Positions 8,270 to 63,758 of a stretch of DNA of 64,000 bases are shown here, piece after piece (positions within the stretch are counted from its first letter, which is position 1; every line of letters starts with the position of its first letter). This stretch comes from an uncultured virus (IMG/VR IMGVR_UViG_3300042988_001938) (Duplodnaviria > Heunggongvirae > Uroviricota > Caudoviricetes), in IMG/VR virus record IMGVR_UViG_3300042988_001938; one strand, written 5' to 3'. The translations under genes were made by a program, and so were the position numbers. The notes below the pieces were generated by a model. The model was not told the origin of the DNA. It saw nothing but the letters and a program-made list of their open reading frames with translations, and made no database searches.

Positions 8270-9574
8270 TAAGAAATAAATTGAATGGCCATGGAGGATA
8301 ATTGGGTGGTAGATAGCATTAATAACTCCGAGGAGTTTAAAGATATTGACTCAGCTGCAGAGTTGTACGCAACATGGCACTGGGGAAACTTCCCAAGGGA
8401 AATGCTTGTTGAAGACTTTAAGGTCGCAGCTAATTGGCAGCTCAAGAGAGTATTCGACTGGCTTGAGAAGAACAATTATCTATCAGACTCCAGAGAAATT
8501 CTTCAGAAGGAATTTGAAAACCAACAATCAAGATATTAGAAAATGAAAGCAATTTTAACTGAAATAAAGATTGACTATGATGTTAAATTTTCAGAGCAAG
8601 AACTTGAGACCTTAAAAAAGTATTCACCTCAATCAAGATTTAAGACAATAGACGACTTTAGGCCTTGGCAAGGTGATGAAGAAGAAAAGATGGCTATAGC
8701 CAAGCAAAAATTTGAAGAGTATATTGTTGACGAAAGAAAAGCTCTTAAGTCAACTGATACTTTTGTTTGCGACCTTCAACTATTTATGCATGACTTCCCT
8801 CACATGAAGTTTAGCGTTATTGGAAGCAGAGAAACAATTGTTGAACCGAATAACATAGATGCAATCGCACAGCATCAACACTTTATTGATTCAATGGTTC
8901 AGGCTCAGGAGCAGAGAATGAAGACAATGATGGATTCATTTCTCAAGATGTCTGAGAATATTGTTGAGAACTTAAAAGCAGATACTCTTAATCAAAAATG
9001 CGATGTTCACATTGGAGGTGGATTATTGTTAACAGTAAATGAAACAATGCTGTTGGAAGATTCATGCACCGATAGATTGCAAAGCGAACTTAACTCTGGG
9101 TGGAGAATACTAGCAGTATGCGTTCAGCCAGATGGAAGGAGGCCTGATTATGTACTTGGTAGATTTAATCCAGACTTAAATGTTGGAGGTTCTGCAGCTA
9201 GATAATATGAAACCAAAAGAATGCGCTATATTATTTGATTCTCACTTTTGTTCAGATTATTACAGAACAAGCTCTGCAGATTCTATATTTAGAATTAGAT
9301 ACGAAGTGTCAATGTCACAAATAGACCATTGGATTAATTCACTTGAGCTAGAATTGTCTAATGATTTTACCAATGATGGTCAAAAATTTAAAAACAAACT
9401 TTTTTATCATTTAAAAAAGTTGAACTGGAAACCAACAAAAATAAAAGGAAGATGGAGCAAGATAATTTTGGTATGAAGAAAAATTATAATTTTTTTTTGC
9501 CTAAAATTTACCCTTTTAGGTAACGCCTAAAAAAAGTTAATTTGGCTTATTGATATTCTAGTTTTTATTTCTTA

Positions 9575-9870
9575 TTTAGAGTTATAACGAGGAGAATTAC
9601 CTCAACTCTAAAATGGAATAGACACTGAATGGACCATTAACTCAGTGCCAAATTGGAGAGCCTCACACACTCCTGTGATGAGGAGAACGGGTTAAGGCCG
9701 CAAAGATTTTCTGTATATTCTTTTTTATGAGAGGCACCTGAGCATGTGCATAAACTGATGAGCAGGGGTTTTCAAAGGGGTTCCCAGCCAAGCCGATGGA
9801 TTGATAGCACTCAAGCGATAAGCAAGAGATTAAAAAAGGGGTTTGGGGTTTTAGAACCTCAAACTTTCCT
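9575..9870 (+). ncRNA. putative structured ncRNA upstream of the HNH gene
   Basis: GC-richer ORF-free stretch with successive hairpins (TTTAGAGTT/AACTCTAAA, CACTGA/TCAGTG, CCTCA/TGAGG) and a terminal hairpin at 9838-9868; strand is inferred. Confidence 0.4.
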
Positions 9871-9980
9871 GCATCTAATCTCCAAGCAATGATTAATATT
9901 CATACACATAATTTGTTATTAAAATATTTTTTACTATTTTATAAAAGGGATTTTTTGAATCTTTGATAAAAATAGTTAAT

Positions 9981-36303: not shown

Positions 36304-36346
36304 ACTCTTTATTTTTCTAACAACTGATTTCTCAATAATCACAATG

Positions 36347-36419
36347 TCCCCCTGCTGGGATTCGAACCCAGGACCAAAGGTTTTAGAGACCTCTGCTCTG
36401 CCAACTGAGCTACAGGGAG
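36347..36419 (-). tRNA. amber suppressor tRNA (anticodon CUA)
   Basis: CTCCCTG/CAGGGGG acceptor, GCTC/GAGC D arm, GAGGT-CT CTA AA-ACCTT anticodon arm, CTGGG-TTCGAAT-CCCAG T arm. Confidence 0.9.
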
Positions 36420-36451: not shown

Positions 36452-37252
36452 TTATTTTAACAATGAGGCAATGTCCTCAGCAGAAGCCTTGCTCTTAAGT
36501 TTTCGAACAATCGCCTTAAGCAATGTTGCCTTTGCGCTTGTTGGGTCTGCAAGGGAGAGTGCTTCCTCAAGGACAGCAATTTCGCCCTTTGCTTTCTTTT
36601 GCTTTGGCTGACTAGGTGTTTCCTTCTCAGCTTTTTTTGTCTCAACGAAGTTCTTAGCTGCCTCAACCAATTCTTCATCGGTTGTTGTTTCACGCTGTAA
36701 GGCGTTCACCTTTGCAACGGAAATTTCACCAGCCTCAATCATTTTCTGTACAGCCTTTGGTGCTTCTGCGGCTTTCACAAGGTTGTACTTCTGTGCTTGT
36801 GAATCACCAATTGCAAGTGAGGCAATAATTTCTTTCTTGGTAACTCCAAGTTCAAGCAACTTAGAAATTCCCTTAACCATTTCACTGTTGGTAAGACTGT
36901 GAGAAGCATCACCATCGAGTAACATGGCAGTCACACGCTCCTTCTCATCGCTTGAGCCTGCCATAATGCTCATGTGCGTAATTTTTGCACCATACTTCTC
37001 ATTTGCCAAATTAATGGCAGCTAGTCTACGGTGTCCTGCAGTTAATACATACTGCTCAGTTCCACGGACTTTGTATCCAATCCCTGGGTTTACCTGACCA
37101 GTCTTTGCAAATGACTTTGCGAGTTCGTCAATTCCCTTGAGTTCTTCACGAACGTTGAAGCCTTCCTGAACAATTATGTTTCCGAGTGCTACCTTGATGT
37201 AGTCATTCTTGCTGTTCTTTGGCGTTTCTTGTGCTTCTGCTGTTTTTGACAT
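36452..37252 (-). CDS. ParB/Srx-like N-terminal domain protein
   Basis: GFNVRE...IDELAKS...LTAGHRRLAA. Confidence 0.8.
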   Translation of the reverse strand: MSKTAEAQETPKNSKNDYIKVALGNIIVQEGFNVREELKGIDELAKSFAKTGQVNPGIGYKVRGTEQYVLTAGHRRLAAINLANEKYGAKITHMSIMAGSSDEKERVTAMLLDGDASHSLTNSEMVKGISKLLELGVTKKEIIASLAIGDSQAQKYNLVKAAEAPKAVQKMIEAGEISVAKVNALQRETTTDEELVEAAKNFVETKKAEKETPSQPKQKKAKGEIAVLEEALSLADPTSAKATLLKAIVRKLKSKASAEDIASLLK

Positions 37253-38791
37253 ATTCTTATTTTTTTATTGGTTCACTACTCTAACAATTGATTTCTCAAA
37301 AATCACCAAGCCATATAATTTGACCGAATGAAAATTTTGCCATCATCTAATTTTTTCTCATTTGAGACGCAACCTCCACCCTGAACGTATTCAAGCCAAT
37401 AGGTTACAGCATTGTAGTCCTTTTCCTCACAAATAACGCTCAAGCTCTTGTATGGAAGTAAGTCACCCATTACAGGACATCTTTGAGGAATTGGCTCATC
37501 GTTTGAGTTTTCTTGAATTTTATTCGCTTCATCTGAACCCTCCTTGTAAGGTAGACCTCTGGCTACAATCATTCCGTTTGAAAGTCTCTTATACTCTCCA
37601 CTTGCTGGGTCTGTCATCTTTCCGAAGACATCATCCATTGAAATTCCTAAGTATTTTTCTTCTCTGCTCATGTTACTCTAACAATTGATTTCTCAAAAAT
37701 CACAAGGTTAAATTATCTATAAGAAATTGGGCTATGAGGGTATAATGAATTGAAGGCTCCAAATAATCCAAGGTCAACCTTAACATCAATTGAAATTTGA
37801 ATAAACTCCTTATCGTATTCTTTTTTGTTATTAATCTTAATTCCTTGAACCACCCAGTCACCATAGTGAGTTGTAACAATAATGGAGAGAATAATCCCTT
37901 TGTACGAGTTGTGAAATTTTTCAACCGCATTTTTAACCTCCTCTTCAGTTGGTTTTCCAGCCCCTCTTGACTTTATGCGTTCACGAACTTTAGAATAATT
38001 ACCCTCATAGAATTTTCCATTCTGGTAAAAAAATATCTTTGAGTCCATGAATGGACCATTTGTCATAATGTATACAGGGTCCTTTGTCTGAGGAAGACTT
38101 GCAATTTTTGAATCGAGGTTATAATTTTCTTGTGTCATCTTTCTTAGTGTTTAGTTCACTTCTCTAACAAATGAATTTTCAAAAATCACAAGTTATTGTA
38201 AATTTCTGCTTCCTCCTTAATTTCAATTAGCTCCAACTTAATCTCTTTCATGGAGAGACCTTCACCAGTAGAGAAATATGTTTTATCATTAATTACTTCC
38301 TTAATTTGCTCCTTTGAATATTCTGCATTGAACTCAGAGGTGAATGAGACTTCATGCGTATTCTCATTAACAGTTACATTCTTAATCCAAAACTTGTTTG
38401 CATTAATACTTCTCCATGCGAATGTTCTCTCATGAATCTTTGTATCTGGGGAGAACTTGAGTTTAACAAAAATCTCCTGAACTTCAATTTTATCTCTTGA
38501 TGACATATCTTTCGTGTTTAATCTTCAACTACTTCAAAGACGCAATACCCATAAGTAATCTCTCTTTTTACCTCTTGAATATGAACTGCAGGCTTAATAA
38601 TCCAATCCCTGTCTGAGTATTCGCTCTTAATTTCTTTCAACTTTCCTTTACACTCTTCCTTAGAGGGAGTGAAGGTGTTTTCAATAATGATGTTAAGTTT
38701 CTTGCTCATATTACTCTAACAACTGGAATCTCAAAAATCACAGGGAGAATTTGTTTACAGTTAATTGTTTACTGTAAACAAAAAGGGAGAA

Positions 38792-40080: not shown

Positions 40081-43000
40081 ACTACTCTAACAACTAGAAT
40101 TTCAAAAATCACATCAAATCTTTATCAGGTAGTGAGGAACGCTGAAATTCTCAAAGTCATAAACCTTAACAATCTCATTTTCATATTTTCTCTTAAGCCC
40201 TTGAATGGCTTCTCCTACTGTCCAGAACATCTGTCCAGACCACTCACTTTCTGGGTCGAGAACTGTTCGAATCAGTTCCATCTTATCTGGGTGGAACACG
40301 TAGTAATCCATCCCCTCTTCAAGAGGTTTACCGTCCAGAGTAATTTCCCAGTCCATCATTCTGCCGTAGTAGTTAAGCTCTCCATTTTTTGAGTAGGCAC
40401 AAAGGCATAGTTCACTGTCATACATCTCATAGGTTACACTAGGAATATTATCAATGACAATGTTGCCAGAATTGTTTACAGAAACACTTAGTTCAACGTT
40501 TAACACTGCTCTGTATGGTGTTGAAATTTGAATCTTTTTCATACTATTGGGGTTTATAATTTTAGAAAGATGAGGACTTATTCGCCCTCATCCTCATCTT
40601 CTGGGAATTTCTCTTCCTTTTGTTCTTCAGCCCACTCACAAGCGTTGTCATAAACTCTGTGGTTTGCTTGAACGCTGTCTGCGAAGTCATTGAACCAGTC
40701 TAGTTCTTTCATTAGCTGGTAAACTTTCTCGTTATCTGGAAGTAGCAGGAATTCTGTACTGTATTTACTGCAAAGGAAGCATGTAGGTACTTTGCTGGTA
40801 ATTCCGTCTATTTCTCTGTATTCTGGGTGGTTAGCTGGTTTGCCACACCACTTACAATTTGGGGCCTTATTCATGTTCGCCTCCTTCCTCAAACTCAGAG
40901 CCTTCATAGTAGTAGCCCTCACCTTCGACCATAATACTGGCGCTAAACTCGCCTACACCAGAAATCTCCTTTCTCTGGACCAGCTTCTTAAGAAGGGCCA
41001 CGACCTGCTCGACCTGCCATTCTGCATTTTGAACTCTTGGAGAACTTACCTGAAAACACAGCTCCTTATCTCCGACCTCGAAGTCGTATAGCTCATAGTA
41101 GCCGTTTCCTTTCTCTTCTCCCAGAACTTTCTTGAAGCTTTCTTCAACGTTCTCATTTCCTAATAGTTCGTGAACTTTGTTGGCATCCTCTTCATTGTTG
41201 AAGTAAATATTCACATTGCCTTGTGCAAATTGTCCCATGGGGTTTATATTTTTGGGGTTAATAAGATTCAGGAAGGGGTCAAAGCCCCTTCTCTGGTAAG
41301 TAACCCCTAAGCCACCTGTCGTCAACGTGCTTAAGCAATTCGTCAATGGCTGTCAAGTCTCCGCCATTAAAGTCTCTGCGCATCTCTTCAATAACTTGGT
41401 CTACAAGGTCTTGCTTAAGAAACTCATCAACTTCTTCTTGGTCCAGCTCATTGCCATCTTCATCCTCGTAGCAAACGAAGTATAATTCAACATCGCTTAC
41501 AACTTGACCTTCCTTTGCTGTTATGTACTTGGAATTTAGCTGGTCCATCTCGTCCATGTCAAGAATGACATCTTCACCAGCATATCGAATTTCGGAACCT
41601 TCTTCTTCATCAAAGTAGAAACTTGCTTCTGAGAGGACTGGGTTGTCCAGCTCAATTGTTCCGTTAAATTTCTTGTCCTCTTTCTTTGTGAGAACAATGT
41701 CGCTAACACCGTAGCGAACTCTAATGTTTTCTCTTTTCATCTTGTGGGGTTTATATCTATCTAACAACTGGAAGTTCAAAAATCACAAGAACTCACTCTT
41801 CCAATTCAACTTCAACAATAATTTCCTTACCTTCAAAGTCGAATACCAGCTTAACGTCTGGGTTGTCGAAGTCAAAGTCACCTTCTTCCATATCACATCT
41901 GGACAAGAATAGAACTGCCGTTGCTTCCTCTAGGTCTTCAACTGTAAGTTCATAGTTGCAATCCTCATCCTCTGGGAATGTTTCCTCATCTACTTCAAGG
42001 CGTGAGGTAAATGTGAATGCACCACCCTCATCCTCTGGGTTTGTAAAGTCTGTGTGGTATGTATCGAGAATGAAGTTTCTCTTGCCGTCCTTAGAGGTGA
42101 TTGTAACGGCTCCAATGTTAAGGGGGAATCCTTCTGGAATCTGTTCGGTAATTTTGAGTTCTCCGTAGACTCTGGCATACCAGCCATTGGCATCATTTAA
42201 TTTCATAAGAATGGGGTTTTAAAATTTACGACTCTAACAACCCCATTCTCAAAAATCACAACTGTCAGAAAATATCCTCTAGGTCTAATCCTGGGGCTGC
42301 CTGAAAGTCAACTGTTACATGAACTTCTTCACCCTCAAGCCCGTCTACATCTTCTACCTTAACTGGGTACATGTACTCGAACAATGCTTTAAGGTTGTCC
42401 ATATCCATTTCCTTAATGTCAGCAATCATTCGTTGCTCTATGACTTCTTGGCCTACCTGAACTGTCTTGGCCTTAATTTTTAATTCTTCCATGGGGTTTA
42501 TAGGTATTTGTTTAACACTTCGAATTCTTCCTTAGAAATCTCCTTGTAGTCCTCGACCCAAGCGCATATCTCTCCACCGAAGAAGTAAAACTCTTCCTTG
42601 TTCTCGAACCATTGCTCACCTCCGTCATAGAAGTTTTTTGCAATATTTGTGAAGTGCTCATTTGGGTCAACATTACTTGGTAGAGCCTCAACTCTCTTTA
42701 ATTCGAATTCGTACTCACCAGTGCGAACTCCAATAACTCGGAAATAATATTTCATTTGGGGTTTATTTAATGGGTTATTACTCTAACAACTGGAATCTCA
42801 AAAATCACATTCCAATCTCGTCAAGAAGTTCATCAACGGTGAATGACCACTCAACCTTCTCCCACATCATTACAATTTCATCAGCCATGACAGAGCCATC
42901 TATTTTTGCCTGTGCCTCAAGAAGCTGCAAAGCCTCTTCCATGCTGCTGTATAAATCGTCATCATCGCAAATAAGGTGCGACAATCTCTCGCAAGCAATA

Positions 43001-46000
43001 GTACGCTCGTCAGGAATAGTGTCAATAATAGTTTGTAGCTTTTCAGCAAGACTAGAAAAAGCTTGCTTTGGGTCGCTGTTAGACCAATCTGCAGCCGCAT
43101 TGGTGTGCAGCAATTCGTTGAACTCTTTGAGTTCTTTGGCTAAATTTTCCATTTTTTGGGGTTTATTTGGGGTTTAATACTTATCTAACAACTGGAATCT
43201 CAAAAATCACAGGGGTCAGTTTTGCTCCATTTGCTTGTGTATGAGGTCGAGTGCTTGACACTTTAGCTTGAAGTTCAAGGCGTGCAGGTCAAATAGCTCA
43301 TAGAATCTTTGTTCCTCTTGAGGAAGCCAGAAACCTCTCTCGGCTTTAATCCGCTTGAGGTCTCTGAATTCTGTTTGTTCTTCTGGTGTCATCCGAAAAT
43401 GTATTGTTGTGCCTTAACTCTTTGAAGGGGGGTCATTCCTGCTCGCATCATTTTGTTCTTCCAATTCTCCATTGCCTGCGTGTGAGTTATTTCTCCGTCA
43501 CAGTAGAAGTTCTCAGGAGCATGACTTGGCTCAAGAATTAATACAGCTTGCTCAGGGGTTAAGCCTTCTGTTTTAAATCCACCTGCCTTGAGTTCGTCAA
43601 GACATTCTTGACCATACTTCTTGTTGTGTTCCTCAATTTCTTTTTTCCAATCTCTGCCCATTTGTCTAATGTTTTTGTCCACCAATCTAACAACCAGAAT
43701 CTCAAAAATCACAAAGCCCCTTGGCTTATCATCACCAAGAGGCACTTGTAACAACAGCGAACACGTCCTCGCCTCATTCACCGAACTGCTGTTACTTTAG
43801 GGCTTTAATAACTTTGTTAAGAGTCTTATGAAGGTCACTTGTTGGCTCAAGAGACTTGAGAATGACTTTTAATTCATTCATCTCAAGTGGGGTTAATGCA
43901 GGCTCTCTCACCTTATCCCACGCCTTCTCAATTTGCTCTGTCTCTGGTGTTCCAACTCCTGAGCAATCCTCAATATATGCTGTTAGCGCATTGGCAATAA
44001 CTCTCTTTGCTATAATTCTTTTCATGCCTATAAATTTAGAAGTCTGTATCAAGTTGAATATCCTCTTGTCCATCCTCGTATTCAACCTCACATACAAGGA
44101 ATCCAATTCTGTTTACGTAGTGGAATCCTGCACAATAGAACATTGTATCATCATCGCCCTCTACAATTGTCCAAACTCTATTGGTATTTGCAAGACTGAA
44201 AACGTAGTCAAGTTCTTCTCCGAATGTTTCATACATACATCCATTGAAACTTGCGTTGTTGTCAAGGTGGTTGATTTGAGGTTTGAATACCTCATCGAAA
44301 TTATCTTCTGTAACTTTCATCGTGTCGTGTTTTTCTATCTAACAACTGGAATCTCAAAAATCACAAAAGCCCCTTGACTATGAATTTAAAATCTCAATCT
44401 TATAATTTCCTCCTAAGTCTTCCTTGTCCAAGTGTCCTTCTTTTCCTGCTCCGTGCAAGTAAATGTCAACAGCACGCTGCTTGAATTCCTCAATGGTTTC
44501 ACCTTTCTCAAGTCTTACATCAGTTGTAACTTCTGCTGTAATCTTGACTCTTACAAATTCTGGTTCTTCCTCTTCTTCATTGTAGGAGAGAATTTCCTCC
44601 TTTGCTGTTTCAGCGGCATATTCTCCATTAAGAATGTCAGCCATTGTCTGGGCAAGTTCTTCAATGTCGTGTTCGCTCCCGTGCCAGTTCAAAATTTGTT
44701 CTGCTGTAACTTTCATCGTGTTTTATTTTAAAGTTAGATAGTGGGGTTTTAATCCCCCACAGTCATTTGGTCAATTACTTCCCATGAAATCTTTTCAGTA
44801 CAGAACTCTACATCCGAGTATTTGCCATAGGCAACCCACTTAACTCCAAACTCGCTTACATGAATTGTGTCGGCATCCGTTCTAAGAGTTGGAACATCGG
44901 AGAGGTCTACATCCTCAATCTGCCAAACACCCTCGTTGCCCTTTGTGAAATCTTCAAGCTCCTCAACAAGTTCATCAGAAATTTGCTCGTCCTCGAATTC
45001 ATCCTGAGCAAGAAAGTTACATGAGTAGTTGAAGTTGTTCACTTCATAGTTACCCATTGCTTCACGCCCCTTTCTAAGTTTAGAAATTTCCTCTAGTAAA
45101 GTTTTTGTGAATTTGACAACTGCGTAGTTACATCTTGTAAAGTCGTCATCGTTGTCATAGACCTTCAACAGAACAGTTGAAGAGTTCTCCTTGATTTTAA
45201 GTTCCATAATGTGTCGTGTTTTTTTCGTGTTATAACTATCTAACAACTGCAATCTCAAAAATCACAATTAAGAAAGAAGAGGATTTTTTGCGTATTTGTT
45301 ATGGTTTATTTTTGCAAATTCTTCATAGTTGAAGGTTTCAATTCTCCATTCTGCATAGTCTTCAGCAGCTTCATCCCAACAAGAGACATACTTGCCGAAT
45401 TTTTTGTATTTCTCAGAGCGGTATAGGAAAATATCACTTGGGTTTGTTTGTTCTTTACCTTCACTATTAAAGTGAAGTTCTTCCCAATTTGTGTCCTTGT
45501 GTAGGTCAATAAATTCTGAAGCGAACCAAGCCATCGTGTAGGATGTATCGCAAATCCCACCGAAGTCTCCTTCCTCGTTAATAATTTTGTAAAGGCGGTC
45601 AATTCTACCCTCGCATGACATAAGGGCTACAACCATCCCAACCTCTATAGCAACGTCAAGCTGCTCTTTGTTAAGTTTTTTCATCGTGTCGTGTTTTTCT
45701 ATCTAACAACTGATTTTTCAAAAATCACAGAAAACAAAAAAGGGGCTTTCGCCCCTTCATCATTTCTTTGTGTCTATTCTAAAACCAAACGTTCAGAGTA
45801 TAGTGAACATTGCTACATTGATATTCACTTTCCTTAATAACCGTACTGACCAACAAGCCCTCTTGAACGTAGTCAATGCAGTTTTTAGGTTTGGTACTTG
45901 TAGTTAGAAATGTCAAGTAAGTATCTGTTATGGTTTGGTATCCATACAGCGGAATCAAGCTATCCTTGTGTTCCTTTTTGAAGGAATACTTCTCAAACAA

Positions 46001-46808: not shown

Positions 46809-46881
46809 TGCGGGGTGGAGCAGTTGGCAGCTCGCAAGGCTCATAACCTTGAGGTCGCACGTTCGAGTCGTGCCCCCGCTA
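46809..46881 (+). tRNA. tRNA-Met(CAT), initiator-like
   Basis: TGCGGGG/CCCCGCT with unpaired 1-72; CAAGG-CT CAT AA-CCTTG. Confidence 0.9.
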
Positions 46882-47045
46882 CAAGAAATTAAAAAAATGA
46901 AAAGATTTGTTAACATAGAGGTAGTCGAACGTGAGGAGGAAACTCTTCCGATTGGCTATTCCTTATGTTAACGCCAGATTTCGGGTACGTAAAGTACGCT
47001 TAATCATTGCAAGGGGTAGCCAGTTTGGTTACCCCTTTTTTATTT

Positions 47046-47117
47046 CGCCCATTCGTCTAACGGTTAGGACGTTAGGTTTTCAACCTAAAAACACGAGTTC
47101 GATTCTCGTATGGGTGA
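47046..47117 (+). tRNA. tRNA-Glu(TTC)
   Basis: CGCCCAT/ATGGGTG; TTAGG-TT TTC AA-CCTAA; T arm ACGAG-TTCGATT-CTCGT. Confidence 0.88.
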
Positions 47118-47172
47118 CAAGATGACCATGACAGTTGGTCGGAACCTTACCAGTTCCTTTGGTCATCAAAAT

Positions 47173-47246
47173 GCTATGGTATGCAAATTGGCTAAGCACC
47201 CAGTCCTTCAAACTGGTCTGTGCGGGTTCGAATCCCGTCCATAGTA
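47173..47246 (+). tRNA. atypical tRNA, anticodon TTC (C at position 33)
   Basis: GCTATGG/CCATAGT; CCAGT-CCTTCAA-ACTGG; GCGGG-TTCGAAT-CCCGT. Confidence 0.7.
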
Positions 47247-47255
47247 CAAACATAC

Positions 47256-47329
47256 GTTCCTGTAGAGTAACTGGTTAACTCGTCAGACTTTCAATCTGGA
47301 GATTGCGGGTTCGAACCCCGTCAGGAATG
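47256..47329 (+). tRNA. tRNA-Glu(TTC) with Asp-like body
   Basis: GTTCCTG/CAGGAAT; TCAGA-CT TTC AA-TCTGG; GCGGG-TTCGAAC-CCCGT. Confidence 0.88.
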
Positions 47330-47330
47330 C

Positions 47331-48763: not shown

Positions 48764-51700
48764 GTTTTTTTCTTTCTTATTCTTAATAAGGACAGTTTCA
48801 GCCTCCTCAAGAGCTTTTCTCCATTCTGGGTTACCATGTTGCTGCTTCAGCTTGTATCCTTCGCTCACAAGCTTCTTAAGGGCTTTTTCCAACTGTTCCA
48901 TTGCACTATTAATCTTTTTTTATAATGTCAAGCAAGACATCTTCCTTTGTTTTTCCAGTAAGTATTGCCAAGACTGAACTTATTGTGAAAATGCTAAAAT
49001 CATCTTCACTTGGTTTCTCTGGGTTCTGACTTTTAATATGCTCCTTAGCATTATTAATCATCATTTTGTAAAGTTCATTTTCCATGACTACTTCTTTTGC
49101 ATGAATTCAACTTCTCCTGTAACCATCTCATGTCCGAAGCGAGCCTGAATTCGCTGTTTCAACTCCTCATCCTTCAGGCGTGTTCCTGTTCTTGCTCGAA
49201 GCGCAGAAAGGTTAACAAAACCAAACATATTGAATGTTGTGTTTCGCTTGAGGTCTTGCTCAATTGACTTTGGTAATTTCTTTTGCTTTTCCATGTTACT
49301 CTAACAATTGGTTTCTCAAAAATCACAGAGGGTTATATCCTCTCTGTACAATTTCCTCTGGGGAGAGTTCATCTCTTGCATCAAGAGTAATCTCAACGCC
49401 ATAAACAACCCACTCACTTCCGCAGGCATCGCAGCAATTCATTGAGTCTGGGGAATCGAAGTCTGGTCGAACGTATTGACTTCTGTTGCACACAGGGCAT
49501 TCTGAAGCATCCTCAACAACACTTCCATAAGGGAGTTCCTCATCGTCCTTAATTGACTCAAGGTTATCACCAAGTTCTCGGTTATCAAGCTTTGCCTGAA
49601 AGCCCTTATACGAGGCAGAAATGATTTCCTCATCGGTTGCGTTCTCATCTACAATGACTCTTGTCATCAAGGAGACCATTACAAGTTTTGCTACTTTTGC
49701 CATGTGTCGTGTTTTTTATAAAGTTAGAAATTTGGCTCTTCAACTGTTAACTCGTGGGTTTCCCAATTATAGTCAACCTTGTAGCCTTGACATTCCTTAT
49801 AAAGCTTGTCAGGGTATGAAACATTTGACTTGCCGAAGTCGGTAACAACAGCAGGACGAATGTCTTCAACTGGTGTCATACCACAAAGGTCAAGACGAAC
49901 CTCGTCAGGAGTAATAACCCCAAGAACCACCGCAAGCTCCTCTTTATCATTACCACCCTCAAGCCAAGTTTTTCTTTTAACAGCCACAACCTGTCCAACA
50001 ACGTAAGGGTTGTTCTCAGGTGTTCCACCTCCAAAGTACTCATCGTACTTGTATGGTGTATAATTTTTGGTATCTACAATTATTTTCATACTTCTCTAAC
50101 AACTCGAATTTCAAAAATCACAAATTAGTGCTTAACAAATCTGTCTTCATCCTCATAGAATGAATACATTGTCATGAACGTCTGAGAAATCGTATTCTCA
50201 ACTCTTGCCTCAATTTCAATTGAATAGCCATTTGGAAGCCATGCACGAAGAGTTGACGCTATTTGTCTAACTTGTGCCTTTAGCTGTTCCTCTCTGGTGA
50301 CTGTGAGTTCAAATTGAATGCTGGGCTTTGGGTTTGTTGTTGACTTATCAACTGAAAGACCCTTAACAATGTGTCCATTTTCATCATGAACCTGAACTTC
50401 TATGTGGTACGTTTGCTTTTCCATAATCATCTAACAACGCAAATCTCAAAAATCACAAACCTAGTTCTTCAACCGACTCACCCATCTCACAAGGGAATAG
50501 TTCCTGAATCTTTTTCATCAGGGAGAGTGTTTCTTCGCTCGACTGCTCTTCTCCACAATGCTGTGTGAACTCAATATGGTTCTTAATGAAATACTTTAGC
50601 TCTGCGCTTTCATTCTCTGTGCAATCAATTCCGCTTTCTTTTCGGGAAACAATCTTAGCTACAAGGTCATTGTTGAATAACTCCTGGTTCATCCCTGGGA
50701 ATCCCCAAATCCAATTCTCTTTCGCTCCGTCAAGGGTCATATAGCCCTCTTTCTCTAGTTGCTTGATAGCATCCTGAACTGCCTTCTTTCCGAATCTGGC
50801 GTGCCATTGACTTCCGTTCTTAACTACTTCCATGTCCTTAACTGGAACAATCCCGTTATAGTGCTTGTGGAAGAACATTTCTCGAATTGCGTTGCAAGCA
50901 ATCTGTGTCTTTGTTGGCTCGTTCATGGCTGTGTTACTTCAATAGCAATTAAACAAATCTCTGCGGCTTTCTCAGGGGTCATGTCAGGTACATTCCCAAT
51001 GTGTGTGTTGTATTTTCCTGAGTGTGGGTTGCAATCGAATTTCTTCTTTGCTTCCTCTACATTGTCAAATCGTGCAAACATGTTGTAGCAATACTGAACA
51101 TCTGTGCTAACATGAATGTCAATGTTTCCAACAACCGTGTCCAAGTGAAATGACCTGTGGCTGTCTATTGTTTTATACTCCTTTGCTCCAAGCTTAACTA
51201 AGCCTGCAACAAGCGTATCAACAAATCTTTGGCTTTTATTTTTTGTTCCCATGATACTCTAACAATTGAATTATCAAAAATCACAAATTAATTCCACAAT
51301 TTGGACAAGTTGTGTGTTCAGAAATTGAATTGATTTTTTGGTCAACAAAAGTTTTCTTATAGCCTATTGTGTGACCCTTCCATTCATAGAAGAAATGTTT
51401 TCCGTTTTCATCCTCGAAAATAGGTGAGGTTGTAAAGTGTCCTTCATGAGCTGGAATTCCTGTTTTCTTGCTGTGTTTATCAAGAGTTGACTTGACAAAT
51501 TTATTCATTTCACCATGGTTTCCATGATAGGCTCTCTGCTCTTTCGCTCCAATTAGTTTGTTTCCAAGAAAAACAGTAATCAGAAAGAAATTTGTGTCTT
51601 TTTTTGCTTCCATGAATCTCTAACAACTGAATTATCAAAAATCACAAAGAGGAACATTACTGTTCCTCTTCCTTGTTTTGTTCATACATAAATGCAATCA

Positions 51701-56075: not shown

Positions 56076-56424
56076 AAAACAAAAAAGGGCCAGCTGCTAA
56101 AAACCCCTTAATAGCGCTGGCCCTAATTTCATGGTCCTCAAAACCCCTTAAGAGGACCAATAAATACGCTGCATGTTTGTTGCTTACGTATAGTATACTA
56201 TGCATTTCAGCTGTTTTAACCGCTCTTATAACATGTGCAGCGCTTGTGGACCAAAACCCCTTAAGGTCCGCAGCATAGCATGCATGATTATAATCAGCGC
56301 TGCATGGCCAAAACCCCTTAAGGCCTTTGCTTGCAGCTGTTTGGCCCTTAAGGACCATGCATGTATTAATCTTTCAAAGTACTTGGCCTGCTTAAGGCCG
56401 TAGGTCCATCGTTATGGTCCTTAT
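56076..56424 (-). ncRNA. putative sRNA with four hairpins bearing the identical loop UUAAGGGGUUUU
   Basis: Repeat promoter at 56431; loops at 56100, 56140, 56253, 56310; last hairpin followed by a U tract. Confidence 0.7.
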
Positions 56425-59400
56425 GTTAACCTAACAACTGCAATCTCAAAAATCACAGCGCTCTAAGTTTTATCGGTTCAACCTTGAAATCTCTGCCGTA
56501 CATCGAAACGTACATCACGGACCCGTTGGTCCACATTTCCTGAATCTCTTCATCTGTGTACTTGGACCACTGCTTCTCATAGTCTCGTTCTAGGCGCTTT
56601 TTCTCTCGTTCTGCAGCCTCAGGCGACTCAAACCCTATGTTCATATAGGTATGACGCTTAAAGTCCAATATAGAGAAGTATGTAAGCTTCCAAATTTGTT
56701 TCATTGTAAATTCATAAGGTCCTTAGCAACTGAAATAAAGAAAACATCTTCAAACCATTGCCAAATTTCAAACTTATCAGTACCTTTCTCAAACATAAAT
56801 CCTGTATGAGTATAGAAATTTTCATCTATTTCATCCTCTTCGTTTACTGGAACATCTCCTAGTTCATTCCAAAGACTAACAGCAACCTCCTTGCAATTAA
56901 GGTCATTACCAGCCATTCTCTTGCATAGAACTACAAACCTGCTGTCATCTTTACTCAAGAGTTCGTTCTTCTTATCTTCTTCGAAGTTATAAGAAACGCC
57001 TTTTCCAGTTGTATACTTGGTTAAAATTATGTTCTCCACGTAGTAAGTCGGGTAACCTGCAGAAGTATCCTCACATAGGTTAAAATGACGTACTGAACGA
57101 ATTATCTTATGTCCCTTTCTATTTGTTTCCATATTATTCAAATTCACTCCAATCACCTTTAATTTCAAACTCTGTGGCTATCTTGAAGAGTGTCCAAAAC
57201 TCATCCTTCTCCAGAAGAGAAAGTCTTCCTTGTACATTGTCTGGAGCAACCTCAAGAATGAACTTCTTATTCGTTCTCTCATTGAAGTCCAGAAGGTAAT
57301 AATACGCTCTTGCAGGTACAAGAGTATCATCAAGTAAACTTTTCATTCCGCTTTCTGTTCTCATGTTACTCTAACAACTGAAATCTCAAAAATCACAAAG
57401 CCCACCTCCAATGGAAGCGGGCTTGACCTAGTATCTTATTTAACTTCTTTAGTAGTTGACCACCCTACGGGGCTTTCCGTATCTGTGTACCGAGCTTCAA
57501 CGCTATTGCCTGACTTATTCGTTCGACCTGCATCGGGTTCGGAGCAACTTGTAAAGGTTTCATTATCAATATTCGAAATAGTATAGCTTGACGTTCCTGC
57601 TTGTATTCCGTAGTCAATTGGCACATCTACAAAGGTAATCGAATCATTATCAACACTCACCGTGACCGAGCCGTCCGTGACCAACGTGTCCTCCTGACCA
57701 CTTGTATAATTCACGGGACTGACCGCAACGTTTCCGAACTCAAAAATAACTGGCTGAATTTCCACCGAACTCACGAAAACCACGGGGCTTTCAATTCCAA
57801 TGTCGTAGACGACTTTTGTGGTGGGGCTGTCGTTGGCACTTGCCGTTGTGGTGAAACTCACCGTCAAAATCGCAATCAGCGAAAGTAATCCGAAAATGCT
57901 TTTCATTTTTCTTTTGGTTTTTTTGTTTTTGTGGGACTATTCCCGTTGTGTTCTCTTGTGCTTCGCACTTTGCTTTAGCAAAACTCTAACAACTCGATTC
58001 TCAAAAATCACAAGGTCTTATTTTCCAACCCACCTTTGGGTCTCACTTTAATTATCTGCCTTGTCAATCCTTAAGAAGCCTTGTCGTTACAAGTGCCTTA
58101 TATGTACCTCTAACAACTCGATTCTCAAAAATCACAGAGTTAGTCTTGACATCTTTGCATTGTCTTGAAGTTGTCTGTGTCGTAATCTTCAAGCAAGTAA
58201 AGAATATCGTCAATCACATCTTCCTCCAAGTCCTCGTATGGAAATTCATCCTCTGCAATTTCAGTCTCATTGTTGTATGTAACAACTCTGACATTATTTG
58301 CGTTGAATCCCTCAACAAGAGTGGACACGTTCATTCGGTTCGTTCCAGAACTGCTAATGCAAGGTGAATGGTCTGCTTCAAGCTCTGCAGTTGTAGTTGC
58401 CCCCCACTCTCCAATAATCTCCTTAATTCTGGAAATCTTGGCTGTCTTGGTGTCAACTTCTGGCTCAATTTCTGATAAAATAGAGTTCTTTAAAGTTTCA
58501 AGCAAGTCTCGACTTGTTGTCGTAAGTGTGTTTGCTGGGTTATCTAAAACCAAGCAAATAGTTTTTATTTGAGTTTCTTTATCCATGGTATTCTAACAAT
58601 TATTTTTTTAAAAATCACAGAGTTAGGTCTTTTGTATTACCTTTAGAATCAGTGGCAACTAATTTTGTCTTCCATCCCATTAAAGACGCTTTATCGGAGG
58701 CATCATTTAGACTTTCAGTCTTTAGTGCGCTATTGCCATCCTTATCGAAAACCTCGAAAGTAACTGGCACATTCTTGATTGGGTCAAATTTATTTTCCAT
58801 GACTCTCTAACAACCGATTTCTCAAAAATCACAATTTATTCTTCGTCAACACAATCACCACCACAAAGACTGCACTTTCCATCTTCATCTGGAAGAGCTT
58901 CGCTGTCAACATACTTCTGGCACATTCCAGAAATATGAATGTCGCTGCTGTCCAAGGAATTGGTGAAAATCATTGGCGCTCTGTCTCCGTGTTGCTGGTC
59001 AAGTGTTGCACTCATTTGAGAAAGTACATTATTAACTTCTTCTCGAATTGAATCTCTATCGCTAGAGAAAACATCGAATTGAATCTGGACTGTTACTGTT
59101 ACGTTTTTCATAATGCTCTAACAACTAGATTTTCAAAAATCACGCACCAAGGTCTTCGAGGTATTCACGAACATATTGCTCATCCTCTTTAGACAATTTT
59201 TTTAATTCTTCTTGGAACTGCGCTTTGAGTTCAAGACACTTGTCTTCATTACCATTTCTTAATTCTTCCTCAGCATCAAGAAAAAGTTGTATAATGTCTT
59301 CTCTTTTCATATCCTTTTTTTATCTAACAACTGATTTTTCAAAAATCACAATTAGTAAACAACTGTCTTCATCAATGAAAACTCGTTGTCGTCAACCAAG

Positions 59401-59733
59401 AAGCCATCCTTAACATACTTCGCCTTAACAGGAATTGTCTCACCCCAGTCTCCAATTCGGTCAATTGAAACTTCTAGTTGACCATCTTCTTCTGCAGAAG
59501 CTTCTTCCTGAATTGCTTTGCCCAACTTTGTGGTTAACTCGAAGTCATCTCCTGCGGTAATTACTGCAACTGGGTTGCCTTGGTAACTTACAATGTATGC
59601 TGTTTTTTCCATTTCAGTTTTGTTTGACACTCTAACAACCCAATTCTCAAAAATCACAAAAGCCCGCTAGAAATTCCAACGGGCTCTTGAGTAACTAAAT
59701 AAATAACAAAACAATATGCAATGACATTTGTTG

Positions 59734-59807
59734 TGTAGGGGGCATGGAGTTGAACCAGCGACACATCGGTGTTCAGCCGACTGCTCTACCACCTGAGCTA
59801 CCCCTAC
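59734..59807 (-). tRNA. tRNA-Phe(GAA), atypical (C37, bulged T stem)
   Basis: GTAGGGG/CCCCTAC; GTCGG-CT GAA CA-CCGAT; TATATTTG element just upstream. Confidence 0.8.
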
Positions 59808-59853
59808 ATAACCAAATATATAAAACCAGAATTAAAATATCAAGGGCACCAGC

Positions 59854-60072
59854 AAAAAAAAGTCCCAGGAAACACGACTAACCTGGGACAATTTTTATGG
59901 TTACCAAGAAACACGACTAACCTGGTACCTTTGTGGCACCCTGGAAACACGACTAACCAAGGTGCTCTGAAACTCTTTCTATGTGGGGCACCAAGCTCTT
60001 TTGCCTGGGCGGTTCCTGGTATCGACTTGTCCCTGTTTCCAGGGCTCGTCCTGGTTACCAGGGCTCCTTCCT
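59854..60072 (-). ncRNA. putative sRNA with three hairpins bearing the identical loop UUAGUCGUGUUU
   Basis: Repeat promoter at 60079; loops at 59870, 59909, 59945; stem mismatches are G-U on the - strand; ends in U8. Confidence 0.72.
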
Positions 60073-60168
60073 GGAACTCTAACAACCAGGATTTCAAAAA
60101 TCACATGGTACCAGGAGAAAACAAGAAGCCAGGAACATTGTCCTGGCTCTATTAGTATCTGGGGAGAA

Positions 60169-61209
60169 TTAGGTCGGTCCACACCCCTCTTTAAAGGCTC
60201 CTGCAGGGAGTTTCCATGTTCCCTCTGGCATAATGATGTCGTGAGGGTAAACTCTTGCCATAGCCAACGCTTTTCTCTCTGGGGTGATGTCTGCATAGGG
60301 AGTTCCCTTTGCAACCAATTCCTCAACACTTTCCTTACGCTTGATGGTCACACCAAACTCTTTCTCGTAGTCTGCAATCTCTTGGGTTCCATCTGGGTCA
60401 ATTGCGTATGCGCTTGCGAATTGGTCAGCGTTACCGAATATACACTTCATGCAAGACACTCGGCTGAATCCCATCTCGTATGCAACGTGAGGGCGAATTC
60501 TCCATCGTTCAATAATCGCCCAGACTTCATGCTCTGTCCAGTCACGAATTGGTCGGAAGTGGTCAACATATCGGGGAGACTTTCCATTTCGTAGGTCACT
60601 TCGGTCAGCTTCCAGAATGTTGTACTTCCCTCTGGCACTACTCTCTTCTCCACGTTCTCCTGTGAGGACTAGCGTTCTAAGTCCTTCGAATCTGTTTTGG
60701 TTTCGAATTGCAGAAGCGCAAATGTCAATCTTAAGGTATGCACTGCACCAGCGAGTTGAAAGGTCTGCTGAAACTTGCGGGAACTTTCGTCTGGTGTTGT
60801 TGTATCGCTCACCCTTACGGCTCTCAAGCTTCACAAGGTTGAAGTTCTCGTCTTCGAAGTAAATGTCACCAGTTGACTGGTTATCTCGAAGCATCTCTCT
60901 CTTGAATCCACCCTCTCTCCATGAGAAGTAAATCGGGAAGTTGAATGCACCAGCGAACGCCATGCAATACCCCTTTGTAATCGGCCAGTCCATGAAGTTT
61001 CGCTCGTTGGTGGCTACTTCTCCGTCAATGTCATGGTGCCAGAGTTCAATCTTGCTTGAGTCAACTCCTTGCTCCAGTAGATGCAGAACAAGCGCAATCG
61101 AGTCTTTGCCTCCAGAGAAACACACAATGTACTTGTCATAGTTGTGAATGTCTCCCAGCATAGCCATCGCCTGCTCTTTGGTTTGAATTAGTTTTTCGTT
61201 TTCTTGCAC
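60169..61209 (-). CDS. phosphoadenosine phosphosulfate reductase family protein
   Basis: FSGGKDS PP-loop, RWCSAYLK, GERGEESSAR, RVSCMKC. Confidence 0.85.
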   Translation of the reverse strand: MQENEKLIQTKEQAMAMLGDIHNYDKYIVCFSGGKDSIALVLHLLEQGVDSSKIELWHHDIDGEVATNERNFMDWPITKGYCMAFAGAFNFPIYFSWREGGFKREMLRDNQSTGDIYFEDENFNLVKLESRKGERYNNTRRKFPQVSADLSTRWCSAYLKIDICASAIRNQNRFEGLRTLVLTGERGEESSARGKYNILEADRSDLRNGKSPRYVDHFRPIRDWTEHEVWAIIERWRIRPHVAYEMGFSRVSCMKCIFGNADQFASAYAIDPDGTQEIADYEKEFGVTIKRKESVEELVAKGTPYADITPERKALAMARVYPHDIIMPEGTWKLPAGAFKEGCGPT

Positions 61210-61289: not shown

Positions 61290-62006
61290 TTAGCAATTAT
61301 TTTTTACCAACTTTTCAAGCTCAGCCTTTAATGCTCTTTCATTTTCAGGAAAACCACCCATCAAAATAATGTAATCAGCTACAGCTTTTTTCATTTTTTT
61401 GTGATTATACTTAGGGTTTCTCATAACTCTAACAACAGCACGTCTACAAAAAGCCTTGTCTGGTAAGTATTGGTTCAAGTCAACCATCTGAGAAATAATC
61501 TTGTCAGAGTTTTCCTCATTTGGAAACTTCATTGTTCCTTTTCTGTAGTCAGCTTGGTCAGAAGTCCCCAAGTAAGCTTCAAGAAGTGGTGTAATTTGAA
61601 AACCAGTTTCTTTTTGAATCTGTGTTAACTTTACATACTCTTCAATAGCCATGTCAGACCATACTTGCAAGAAGTTAGAAGTTCCCCAAGACTTTGCGCT
61701 AGTATTTAACTCAGCAATGAATTGTGCAGCTTCCTTTTTTGTATTCAACTCAGTCAATTCAAAACGAATCGGAATACCTAGTTGTTGAGCGGCTGCAAGT
61801 CTGTGCTGTCCATCAACAACATAGTATCTCATCACACCGTCAATGAATTTTGTCTTAATAATCTGAATCACGCCTTTGAAGCCGTTTTTCTTCATACTCT
61901 CAACCAATTTTTTAACATGAGCCTTATCAACTTTACGGTTGAATTTCAACAAGTGAAAAATTGAATAATCAGTTGTTTCGAAATAAGTTACATTTTTAAA
62001 ATTCAT
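61290..62006 (-). CDS. ParB-like N-terminal domain protein
   Basis: NRKVDKAHVKKLVESM...VVDGQHRLAAA. Confidence 0.8.
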   Translation of the reverse strand: MNFKNVTYFETTDYSIFHLLKFNRKVDKAHVKKLVESMKKNGFKGVIQIIKTKFIDGVMRYYVVDGQHRLAAAQQLGIPIRFELTELNTKKEAAQFIAELNTSAKSWGTSNFLQVWSDMAIEEYVKLTQIQKETGFQITPLLEAYLGTSDQADYRKGTMKFPNEENSDKIISQMVDLNQYLPDKAFCRRAVVRVMRNPKYNHKKMKKAVADYIILMGGFPENERALKAELEKLVKNNC

Positions 62007-62307
62007 AGTCTCTCTTTTTATTTGTTTACATCACTCTAACAACTGAAATTTCAAAAATCACAAAAATTATAAATCTATTTGTTTTTTTATTATAAATTTA
62101 GAAAATTGTGCAAACCCAGAGTTTAATGCAGGCTGGAGTCTACTCTTCCGACTGTATTTCAAAGCCAGGCCCCTTTTATATAGCTCTAACAACTGGAATC
62201 TCAAAAATCACAAAACCCCCAGTTGGTAGGCTGGGGGTCTCGCTGGACTAAACAAACAGGGCTAACCAGCCCACCTGCACGCAGCAGGTCTCGACAAACA
62301 AACTTTT

Positions 62308-63758
62308 TTATTTATTTTCAGTTACGCTTTTAATAGCGTCAATGTAATCTTTCTGCAACTTCTCTGCTCCTGCCTCATCTACCGTCTTCAACTTGGCAAT
62401 AAGGTCATTTACACCACAACCCTTAACAGGAAGTGTTTTATTTTTGATGGCTTTCAGTTTTGTCTTGATAGCCTTCTCTAGGTCGTCTGCGTAACTCATC
62501 TTAGTTCTCTTCTTTAATTTCAACTGTCAAAATACCGTCTGTGTTAATATCTTTAGGCAACTCAACCTCTGTGTTGTAGACATTTGAAATTTGAAGTGCT
62601 CGACCAATTTCAATCAGGCGTACCGCTAGTTGGTCTACTGACCCACTTCCTGAAATGTTTATGTTTAAGTTCTTTGCCATTTTACTTTCTTTACTTATCT
62701 AACAACCCGTTTCTCAAAAATCACAGAGTTTATTTTGTTAACTTTTCAATCAACTCATTTGGAGTTCCTTTCCAAGTTTTTCCACCAATAGAAACTTCAA
62801 TTTCGCAGTTTTCTCTTCTTTTATAAGATTCACCAAAACCCTCAAAAGCATCCACAGAAATGTAATCTTCATGTGAGTTGTTTTCAGAGCCGCCCACAAA
62901 AGAAACAACTTGTCCTTTGTTTTCTTGGTAAGAAGGGCTTCCGCCTCTAACACCTGTAACTTTTAAGTTTATTTTTGCGCTCATAAATTCGTTTTTAACT
63001 CTAACCACTCGTTTCTCAAAAATCACAAATCAAATGTTTGACTGTGCAATAATTTCCTTTGCTTCATTGGTGAACTCATCATCACTCAAAGCCAATAGTC
63101 GGTCTTTCTCTTCTTCGTCAAACCAAACTGAAACAGCAACAACGTTGTCAGTTACAAGAGCAAGGTTAAATAATCCCTTTGCCATAAGGTTTCCTTCGTT
63201 AAGGCGAATATCGTTTACTTGTCTTAAAACATTCATGTCTATATCATTTGGTTACAAGACTCTAACAACTCGTTTCTCAAAAATCACAAATTACTTATGA
63301 CTTTTTATATATTCCATTTTTTTAGCCAAGGCTTCTTTCATCATGTCCTCAGTGAACCAAGAAAACATTCTGCTGTCAATTACCATGTGAACGAATGTCT
63401 CCACATGAACAACAAAAAATGAACCAGCTGGCTTAACTTCAATTTTGTACTTGTGAGGAATTCCACCGCTACAACTCCAAGAACCATTTTCTTTAATAAA
63501 GCAAGAAATTGTTTCTAAGTTTTCATTGTAGTCAAGACTTTGAGTGTGGACGTGCCAAGCAAGGTCGTTCTTGCTAATTCTCTCCCATCTGTTCCAATTA
63601 CTTGTATGCTCCGAATAGAACCCGTTAAGGAGGTCTGTAACATATCGTGCAACGTCCTCAAGAGTTGGAAGTGTTATTGAACTTGTTCCCTCTTGCGCAG
63701 AAACATATGAAGTTCCCGTTGCGTGTAAATTGTTTGCTTCAAATTTTATTAGTTCCAT
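62308..63758 (-). other. Small hypothetical genes (62308-62499, 62730-62984, 63030-63236, 63291-63758)
   Basis: ORFs between array repeats. Confidence 0.65.

Follow-up and report, generated by a model that had tools for sequence, protein, structure and literature searches.

What might two transcription units without an evident protein product be doing among the early genes of a large uncultured phage? The question is raised by positions 56,076 to 60,072 of a 64,000-nt stretch of the IMG/VR virus record IMGVR_UViG_3300042988_001938, here called the window. The two units, RNA1 and RNA2, are each predicted to fold into several hairpins that present one and the same 12-nt loop, and exact complements of the two loop cores (the tags) lie at the start codons of two sets of genes. 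With a probability of roughly 0.55, RNA1 and RNA2 are trans-acting antisense RNAs that would occlude the short leaders of these genes and block the initiation of translation. Base pairing as such seems more likely than this occlusion reading as a whole, and the direction of the effect is its weakest step.

The sequence examined comprises 193,364 bp of one genome, made up of the window and the IMG/VR virus record G001 (140,950 bp). Since the 11,586 bases at the start of the window are 100% identical to the end of that record, the RNA1 and RNA2 units are, by sequence, phage-encoded. The source is a large uncultured freshwater phage of the virulent type. A conserved 712-aa protein of the window has a 62% identical counterpart in LR756500.1, an uncultured phage of 462 kb, and counterparts of about 50% identity in the Cellulophaga phages phi17:2 and phi4:1.

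Both units have the arrangement described in the original prediction, and its elements (the placement of the two units, four and three identical 12-nt loops, a promoter and a U tract) were confirmed in the sequence. RNA1 (about 345 nt; 56076-56424, minus strand) is preceded by a promoter-like 26-mer, here a variant ending in TTAGG (56430-56457, minus strand; the copy at 56455). Its start was placed at 56424 by the 6-nt rule of the leaderless genes described below, and its end is the U tract. The RNA1 loop, UUAAGGGGUUUU (TTAAGGGGTTTT as DNA), occurs in four copies, all on the minus strand. Loop 1 (56310-56321) sits on a 4-bp GGCC stem, loop 2 (56253-56264) on a 5-bp stem with a core whose predicted unpaired probability is 0.98-0.99, and loop 3 (56140-56151) on an 8-bp stem, while loop 4 (56100-56111) caps the terminator hairpin, a 12-bp stem with one bulge followed by T6. 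The whole tract after this last hairpin reads T6GT4 (56086-56076).

RNA2 (about 219 nt; 59854-60072, minus strand) likewise has a promoter-like 26-mer before it (60078-60105, minus strand; the copy at 60103), and the same 6-nt rule puts its start at 60072. Its 5′ half consists of degenerate CCAGG/CCUGG hairpins and its 3′ half of three identical-loop hairpins. The loop, UUAGUCGUGUUU (TTAGTCGTGTTT as DNA), is found in three copies, again all on the minus strand: loop 1 (59945-59956) on a 9-bp stem, loop 2 (59909-59920) on a 7-bp stem, and loop 3 (59870-59881) on the 8-bp stem of the terminator hairpin, after which comes T8 (59861-59854). GC content is 0.44 in RNA1 and 0.50 in RNA2, against 0.39 in the early region.

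All seven copies of the loop words are hairpin loops, and their stems differ in sequence with pairing kept. When the seven hairpins were aligned, 84% of stem cells were paired, as opposed to 41% in shuffles, and sliding the alignment lowered pairing to 26-49%. In 26 stem cells both sides were altered, giving a covariation score that none of 500 shuffles matched, and the TTA...TTT frame was invariant throughout. The units also fold better than shuffled sequences, with z-scores of -4.2 and -3.9. Loop cores are predicted to be unpaired (0.96-1.00) in three of the four RNA1 loops and two of the three RNA2 loops; by this modelling, five of seven cores would expose a seed in the manner of a trans-acting small RNA (sRNA). 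Transcription from the minus strand is favoured because the promoter, the U tract and two G.U stem pairs in RNA2, which would become A.C mismatches on the opposite strand, all agree, and these features point to both units being minus-strand transcripts.

The loops have a further property expected of antisense RNAs. Both open with 5′-YUNR (UUAA and UUAG), and complementarity to the leaders begins at loop position 5 or 4. YUNR has been described as a motif that forms a U-turn and presents the bases after it for rapid antisense pairing (PMC6562991). By sequence, both loops carry this mark of an antisense recognition loop, the U-turn itself being a prediction.

The units had also been called free of open reading frames (ORFs), which is not literally so. 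Mechanical ORFs overlap both of them, including one of 113 aa with an ATG (56358-56017) that continues across RNA1, the terminator and the promoter that follows, and none of the five overlapping ORFs tested matched Pfam or PHROGs. Each unit has its promoter-like 26-mer and a hairpin with a U tract. Rfam cmscan, run over the whole window at the gathering threshold and over 25-64 kb and 55.9-60.3 kb at E<=1-5, returned tRNAs and sub-threshold chance matches only. No family matches RNA1 or RNA2, the sole listing for the two units being NsiR1 at 25.6 bits against a gathering score of 39.

The second line of evidence comes from the leaders. Enrichment was assessed on the minus strand of 25-64 kb, where there are 80 called starts and the 30 nt before starts make up 6.2% of the sequence. 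The complement of the RNA1 loop core, AAACCCC, occurs there nine times (1.2 expected by composition), with eight of the nine copies no more than 30 nt before a called start (binomial P 1.8e-9). The complement of the RNA2 loop core, AAACACGAC, has four copies (0.18 expected by composition), and all four lie 2-5 nt before an ATG (P 1.4e-5). Thus, when counted by strand and by distance to the start, both motifs behave as the original prediction had described, and every leader position that it gave is right. Its broader statement, that the motifs in this orientation occur essentially only in leaders, holds for AAACACGAC, which together with its complement is found in the 193,364 bp only at the four leaders and in the three RNA2 loops. 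It does not hold fully for AAACCCC, which the minus strand has three more times at 9771-9851, where plus-strand genes flank a non-coding gap. With the 8-mer AAACACGA, of which six of seven copies are in leaders, the leaders of 44716 and 38506 join the set, and the exact 7- and 9-nt complements lie 0-6 nt before 11 ATGs. The two loop/leader pairs are separate from each other, as had been claimed.

The AAACCCC tags are all on the minus strand. One abuts the ATG at 41238 (41239-41245; 123 aa), with AACCCC also present 14 nt upstream, and another abuts that at 42492 (42493-42499; 75 aa). Others lie 2 nt before the ATG at 42755 (42758-42764; 85 aa), 5 nt before that at 41740 (41746-41752; 153 aa), and 6 nt before those at 40542 (40549-40555; 142 aa) and 42206 (42213-42219, reading AAAACCCC; 137 aa). 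The gene starting at 43152 (115 aa) has two tags 11 nt apart (43158-43175), the proximal one 5 nt before the ATG and the second copy at 43175, as had been noted. At 44716 (112 aa) the AAACCCC tag is 26 nt before the ATG (44743-44749), and a partial second tag, AAACACGA (44716-44723), runs into the ATG itself and is predicted to form a duplex of -10.2 kcal/mol with the RNA2 loop; this gene therefore carries both tag types. The AAACACGAC tags, on the same strand, lie 3 nt before the ATG at 44320 (44324-44332; 94 aa), 5 nt before that at 45207 (45213-45221; 152 aa, with AACACGA also 12 nt upstream), 3 nt before that at 45684 (45688-45696; 138 aa) and 2 nt before that at 49703 (49706-49714; 126 aa). 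A partial AAACACGA tag (38512-38519, minus strand) is found 5 nt before the ATG at 38506 (106 aa), and weaker second tag copies occur in the leaders of 41238, 42755 and 45207.

By sequence, the motifs follow start codons rather than promoters. Tag spacing is constant relative to the ATG and not relative to the promoter, and three AAACCCC leaders (42492, 41238 and 40542) have no promoter copy. Predicted duplexes with the respective loops reach -11.3 to -11.9 kcal/mol for seven AAACCCC leaders, against a median of -3.7 over 80 leaders, and -12.5 kcal/mol for the four AAACACGAC leaders, against a median of -4.9. The 12 tagged proteins of the window are small and acidic; they match no Pfam family, and a single weak PHROG match is to a family of unknown function. 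Gene duplication does not explain the shared tags, because no two of the 12 proteins have significant similarity (the best pairwise E is 0.037) and they are not paralogues.

A third class of leader, GTAACCAA(A/C), was also seen at 63255, 61229, 55515, 54476, 32440 and others; the word occurs eight times on the minus strand and never on the plus strand. The window has no minus-strand copy of the complement, TTGGTTAC, and no matching RNA was found there.

Promoters and leaders in this region are distinctive as well. All called genes between 25.5 and 63.8 kb are on the minus strand, and the promoter-like 26-mer, TGTGATTTTTGAnAnnnnnGTTGTTAG, has 56 copies on that strand and none on the other (window 25581-63789); a slightly looser pattern finds 61 sites. 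The 26-mer does not fit the sigma-70 consensus and, compared by eye with the Bacteroidota -33/-7 spacing, presumably does not fit that either. Because the ATG lies exactly 6 nt past ...TTGTTAG at 16 of the 61 sites, many early mRNAs are suggested by the sequence to be leaderless, with a fixed transcription start. A host lineage largely without Shine-Dalgarno (SD) pairing, as was originally supposed, is plausible because the leaders are A-rich with no GGAGG present, the nearest phages with names have Cellulophaga as hosts, and the promoter word was also found in Fluviicola and Flavobacterium assemblies in a scan of genome contigs. The host is probably an SD-independent member of the Bacteroidota.

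Eight promoter-like sites have no ORF of at least 35 aa inside 120 nt, and two of these are RNA1 and RNA2. Seven other promoter-driven units lacking an ORF of at least 35 aa have minus-strand starts at 62210, 58134, 55720, 40111, 32650, 25760 and 25581. They fall into two or three sequence families (one with GTAGACTCCAGCYTGC in common, another with GACAGGCTCC..GTGAAACAGAA..GTGAACCTGC in common) and have no Rfam match; look-alikes occur in the related contigs L004, L005 (at 1745), L009, L013 and L049.

The original prediction had the two RNAs addressing blocks of early genes. This is incomplete: the two longest RNA1-loop complements in the 193 kb are far outside the early block and outside the window. 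Both are in the sense of plus-strand genes and at gene starts. A full 12-nt complement (G001:113882-113893, plus strand; L062 13882) abuts the ATG of a 60-aa frame (79 aa from an upstream ATG), and an 11-nt complement (G001:93896-93906, plus strand; L061 13896) is followed 10 nt later by the ATG of a predicted membrane protein of 84 aa. By a hand estimate from base composition, chance would supply about 0.05 matches of 12 nt and about 0.14 of 11 nt. Neither the 84-aa nor the 60/79-aa protein matches Pfam or a PHROG. In all, at least 14 gene starts are tagged. The gap that holds the three additional AAACCCC copies is 480 nt of non-coding sequence (9480-9960). Its plus strand has three copies of GGGGTTT, among them GGGGTTTGGGGTTTT, which is part of a long hairpin rich in wobble pairs; the fold z-score of the gap is only -1.6 and it has no Rfam match.

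Conservation of the tags was seen in one relative, the 42-kb metagenome contig JACCDZ011376016.1 (L005), of which three pieces totalling 15 kb were examined. This contig has a variant promoter (..TTTGTTAGA) and proteins 32-92% identical to those of the window. AAACCCC-type tags are kept before four of its genes, three of which are orthologues (77%, 32% and 53% identity). The orthologue of 43152 (77%) again has two tag copies, and the partial orthologues of 42755 (32%) and 41740 (53% over 43 aa) are tagged in leaders that are otherwise different. Two leaders of the contig read AAAACCCCC, for which a matching loop would be expected to contain GGGGG. In a strain comparison, a contig piece from another metagenome run (X6) over RNA1 has 2 differences in 345 nt; seven other pieces, among the longest listed for that run, have 9-31 differences in about 330-540 nt.

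Considering the architecture and strand of the units, the complementarity, its restriction to gene starts and the conservation of tags in one relative, we infer that both RNAs are transcribed, that their loops bind the leaders and that this binding is repressive. Each RNA would be made from an early-type promoter and end at its own intrinsic terminator. Its 12-nt recognition loop would be displayed four times in RNA1 and three times in RNA2, with stems that differ in sequence. The 5′-UUAR of the loop, as a YUNR U-turn, would stack the next bases for fast pairing, so that GGGGUUU of RNA1 could pair with AAACCCC and GUCGUGUUU of RNA2 with AAACACGAC. The leaders are very short, with the tags at about -1 to -15 relative to the start codon, and if transcription starts 6 nt past TTGTTAG, a tagged mRNA would have only a few bases ahead of its tag. 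Almost all of the leader, as far as the start codon, would then be taken up by the duplex, which would block the 30S subunit. A duplex at this place would occupy the region where the ribosome lands, so that translation of a given block of genes would most likely be shut off as the RNAs accumulate, and the mRNAs might then decay. Repeated loops, along with two tags in some leaders, could allow multivalent or cooperative binding.

Several observations weigh against this proposal. The pairing is short, at 7 and 9 bp, and favourable pairing is not peculiar to leaders: 146 of 6,494 overlapping 36-nt windows pair with the RNA1 loop at -11 kcal/mol or better, many of them non-leader. The bases flanking the tags are conserved in a way that the loops do not explain, with an A after CCCC in nine of nine window copies, opposite a loop A with which it mismatches, and AC after GAC in all four AAACACGAC tags, not complementary to the loop. 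Because these conserved bases face mismatches, some other factor may recognize the tags as well, or the tags may simply follow an A-rich leader preference. A temporal switch is not obvious either, because the RNAs and their targets use one type of promoter. None of the 24 sequencing runs listed is recorded as RNA.

A search for other identical-loop hairpin clusters in the genome and its relatives, a check that the original prediction had proposed, gave none like RNA1 and RNA2. No further cluster exists in the 193 kb, and no identical-loop hairpin was found in the 15 kb of the L005 contig. Homologues of RNA1 or RNA2 were not found in IMG/VR pattern searches, in LR756500.1, in phi17:2, or in a 130-kb relative (G007) with 73% identity in the PAPS-reductase-like protein. 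A filter for hairpin clusters that recovers both RNA1 and RNA2 gave none in G007 and Cellulophaga phage phi17:2 and, in LR756500.1, only AT-rich or repeated-element matches. Among the IMG/VR patterns, the two-loop pattern matched once, in an unrelated tandem repeat (L001), and the promoter patterns gave 0 matches. The scaffold pattern GGTTA-N6-TTTC hit at least 122 stretches with 13 strand-level matches having repeated frames, and the four loci inspected were coding-type tandem repeats. A scan of genome contigs returned 41 loci, whose multi-match contigs (G002 C8 and C9, G003 C28, G004 C235) are distant relatives only, with no blastn match of at least 120 nt to the window and repeated-loop matches that looked like tandem repeats. 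Such missing matches are no evidence against the antisense reading itself; perhaps only a narrow lineage of phages has the system.

Could the same evidence be accounted for differently? The nearest variant keeps the pairing and changes its outcome, to activation or stabilization (for example, by protection of the 5′ end) or to cleavage by a double-strand-specific RNase. If transcription starts 6 nt after TTGTTAG, as the 16 fixed-distance genes suggest, the tags would be found at the very 5′ end of the mRNAs or close to it, which suits protection, and RoxS is reported to activate a gene by blocking 5′-3′ exonucleolytic decay (PMC5419742). A duplex over -1 to -15, which at 44716 includes the AU of the start codon, is nevertheless the classical geometry of repression, and this alternative is considered unlikely. 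Sequestration, in which the units act as CsrB-type sponges for an RNA-binding protein or the 30S subunit and leader complementarity is secondary, is less probable still. It would account for a multi-hairpin layout with a repeated loop, and it draws on AAGGGG being SD-like and able, in a pairing made by hand, to pair with CUCCUU in the 3′-terminal part of a 16S rRNA from Fluviicola, as well as on an AAGGAGC loop in the first RNA2 hairpin. A sponge, however, predicts no exact complements at gene starts for each of two unrelated loops; neither loop contains GGA, no Rfam sponge family matches, and with 36 minus-strand copies of AAGGAG in the early region, its presence in RNA2 is unremarkable. For the same reason, its being common in the early region, SD mimicry was rejected, as was rRNA mimicry, GGGGUUU and GUCGUG being absent from the one candidate-host 16S examined (Fluviicola).

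Two other explanations dispense with RNA pairing altogether. Were AAACCCC/GGGGTTT and AAACACGAC/GTCGTGTTT double-stranded DNA operators, the apparent RNA genes would be operator arrays, and a DNA-binding protein that reads both orientations would explain why the same word occurs in opposite orientations. Operators, however, have no need of hairpins with co-varying stems, in which every array site lies, and spacing that is kept to the ATG and not to the promoter, with three tagged genes lacking a nearby promoter, makes this account very improbable. The units might also be conceived as anti-defence decoys unrelated to the leaders, either a type III antitoxin of the ToxI kind or mimics of CRISPR repeats. 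The hairpin period of RNA2, 36-39 nt, is near that of the ToxI repeat unit, which is 36 nt. Yet the near-identical tandem repeats beside a toxN-type gene that characterize ToxI-like systems are not seen: Tandem Repeats Finder detects no array in RNA1 or RNA2, which share loops and not whole repeats, and PADLOC matches none of the 11 neighbouring small proteins. Since it also leaves the leader complementarity unexplained, a decoy function has hardly any probability. Repression by occlusion of the leaders remains the preferred reading.

How does this reading relate to systems already described? The claim that no equivalent is known was too strong, considering the c4 RNA of phages P1/P7 (PMC12197685) and the 6C sRNA of Mycobacterium tuberculosis (PMC6486639). 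In c4, loop sequences anneal to the surroundings of a ribosome-binding site and so prevent translation (PMC12197685). The likeness is one of mechanism only, in that c4 (RF01695) is phage-encoded, acts in trans and has loops complementary to the ribosome-binding region. It controls a single mRNA (ant) in temperate phages, whereas here identical loops are repeated three to four times, in two orthogonal RNAs, with at least 14 tagged starts. The loops of c4 itself are different from one another. The RF01695 model gave no match in the sequence at gathering or E-value thresholds, and c4 is, by analogy, the closest phage case in mechanism. The closest architecture, again by analogy, is that of 6C, whose repeated C-rich loops bind many mRNAs through few G-C pairs without a chaperone (PMC6486639). 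Shared with it are a multi-hairpin sRNA, a repeated loop motif and many mRNA targets. The 6C sRNA is chromosomal, with C-rich loops and host targets, in contrast to one G-rich and one mixed loop and privately tagged phage start codons here, and there is no Rfam match to 6C. RoxS and RsaE are analogues of this type of sRNA.

CsrB and RsmZ resemble the two units in having many hairpins with the same loop motif. In these sponges, the loops carry GGA for CsrA/RsmA, whereas UUAAGGGGUUUU and UUAGUCGUGUUU lack GGA and have exact complements at gene starts. In function, the closest analogue is RegA of T4, a phage protein that acts on the initiation regions of many early mRNAs to stop their translation; the likeness is in function only, as RegA is a protein and the repressors proposed here are RNAs with programmable loops. 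What sets the two units apart is the combination of identical loops on diverged stems, two orthogonal RNAs on one UUA-N6-UUU frame, and private tags at at least 14 starts. A literature search, supplementary files being outside its scope, found no paper on a phage RNA whose identical, repeated loops are directed at the leaders of several genes.

It is conceivable, if somewhat doubtful, that the two RNAs exemplify a more general RNA addressing system. In such a system, a UUA-N6-UUU U-turn cassette would accept any 6-nt address and be carried in three to four copies per RNA on unrelated stems, and private tags would take the place of the ribosome-binding signal in the very short leaders of a non-SD host. 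Two orthogonal addresses could then switch two sets of otherwise unrelated genes independently, including genes outside the early block. The whole would amount to an RNA version of T4 RegA, open to re-programming by a change of six bases. Post-transcriptional control in virulent Bacteroidota phages is essentially unmapped, and their hosts lack SD-led initiation. A pair of orthogonal, multivalent antisense RNAs with private tags at start codons, if real, would reveal a protein-free way for such phages to time groups of early genes. It could also serve as a compact and re-programmable switch of translation in hosts that do not depend on SD pairing.

The surroundings of the two units contain several other features. 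Just upstream of RNA2, on the minus strand, are genes for a PAPS-reductase-like protein (60169-61209; PHROG 424, with PADLOC matches of the BrxP/DndC type) and a ParB-like protein (61290-62006), and a second ParB-like gene lies at 36452-37252. A tRNA with a CTA anticodon, which reads TAG and is labelled tRNA-Pyl by ARAGORN, is encoded at 36346-36419 on the minus strand. Recoding of TAG was considered and rejected, since treating TAG as sense extends frames no more than other stops do, despite this tRNA. Directly 3′ of RNA2 is a tRNA-Phe(GAA) (59733-59807, minus strand) with its own sigma-70-like hexamers at 59843-59815, and a plus-strand cluster of tRNA-Met and three tRNA-Glu (46809-47330) lies within the minus-strand early region.

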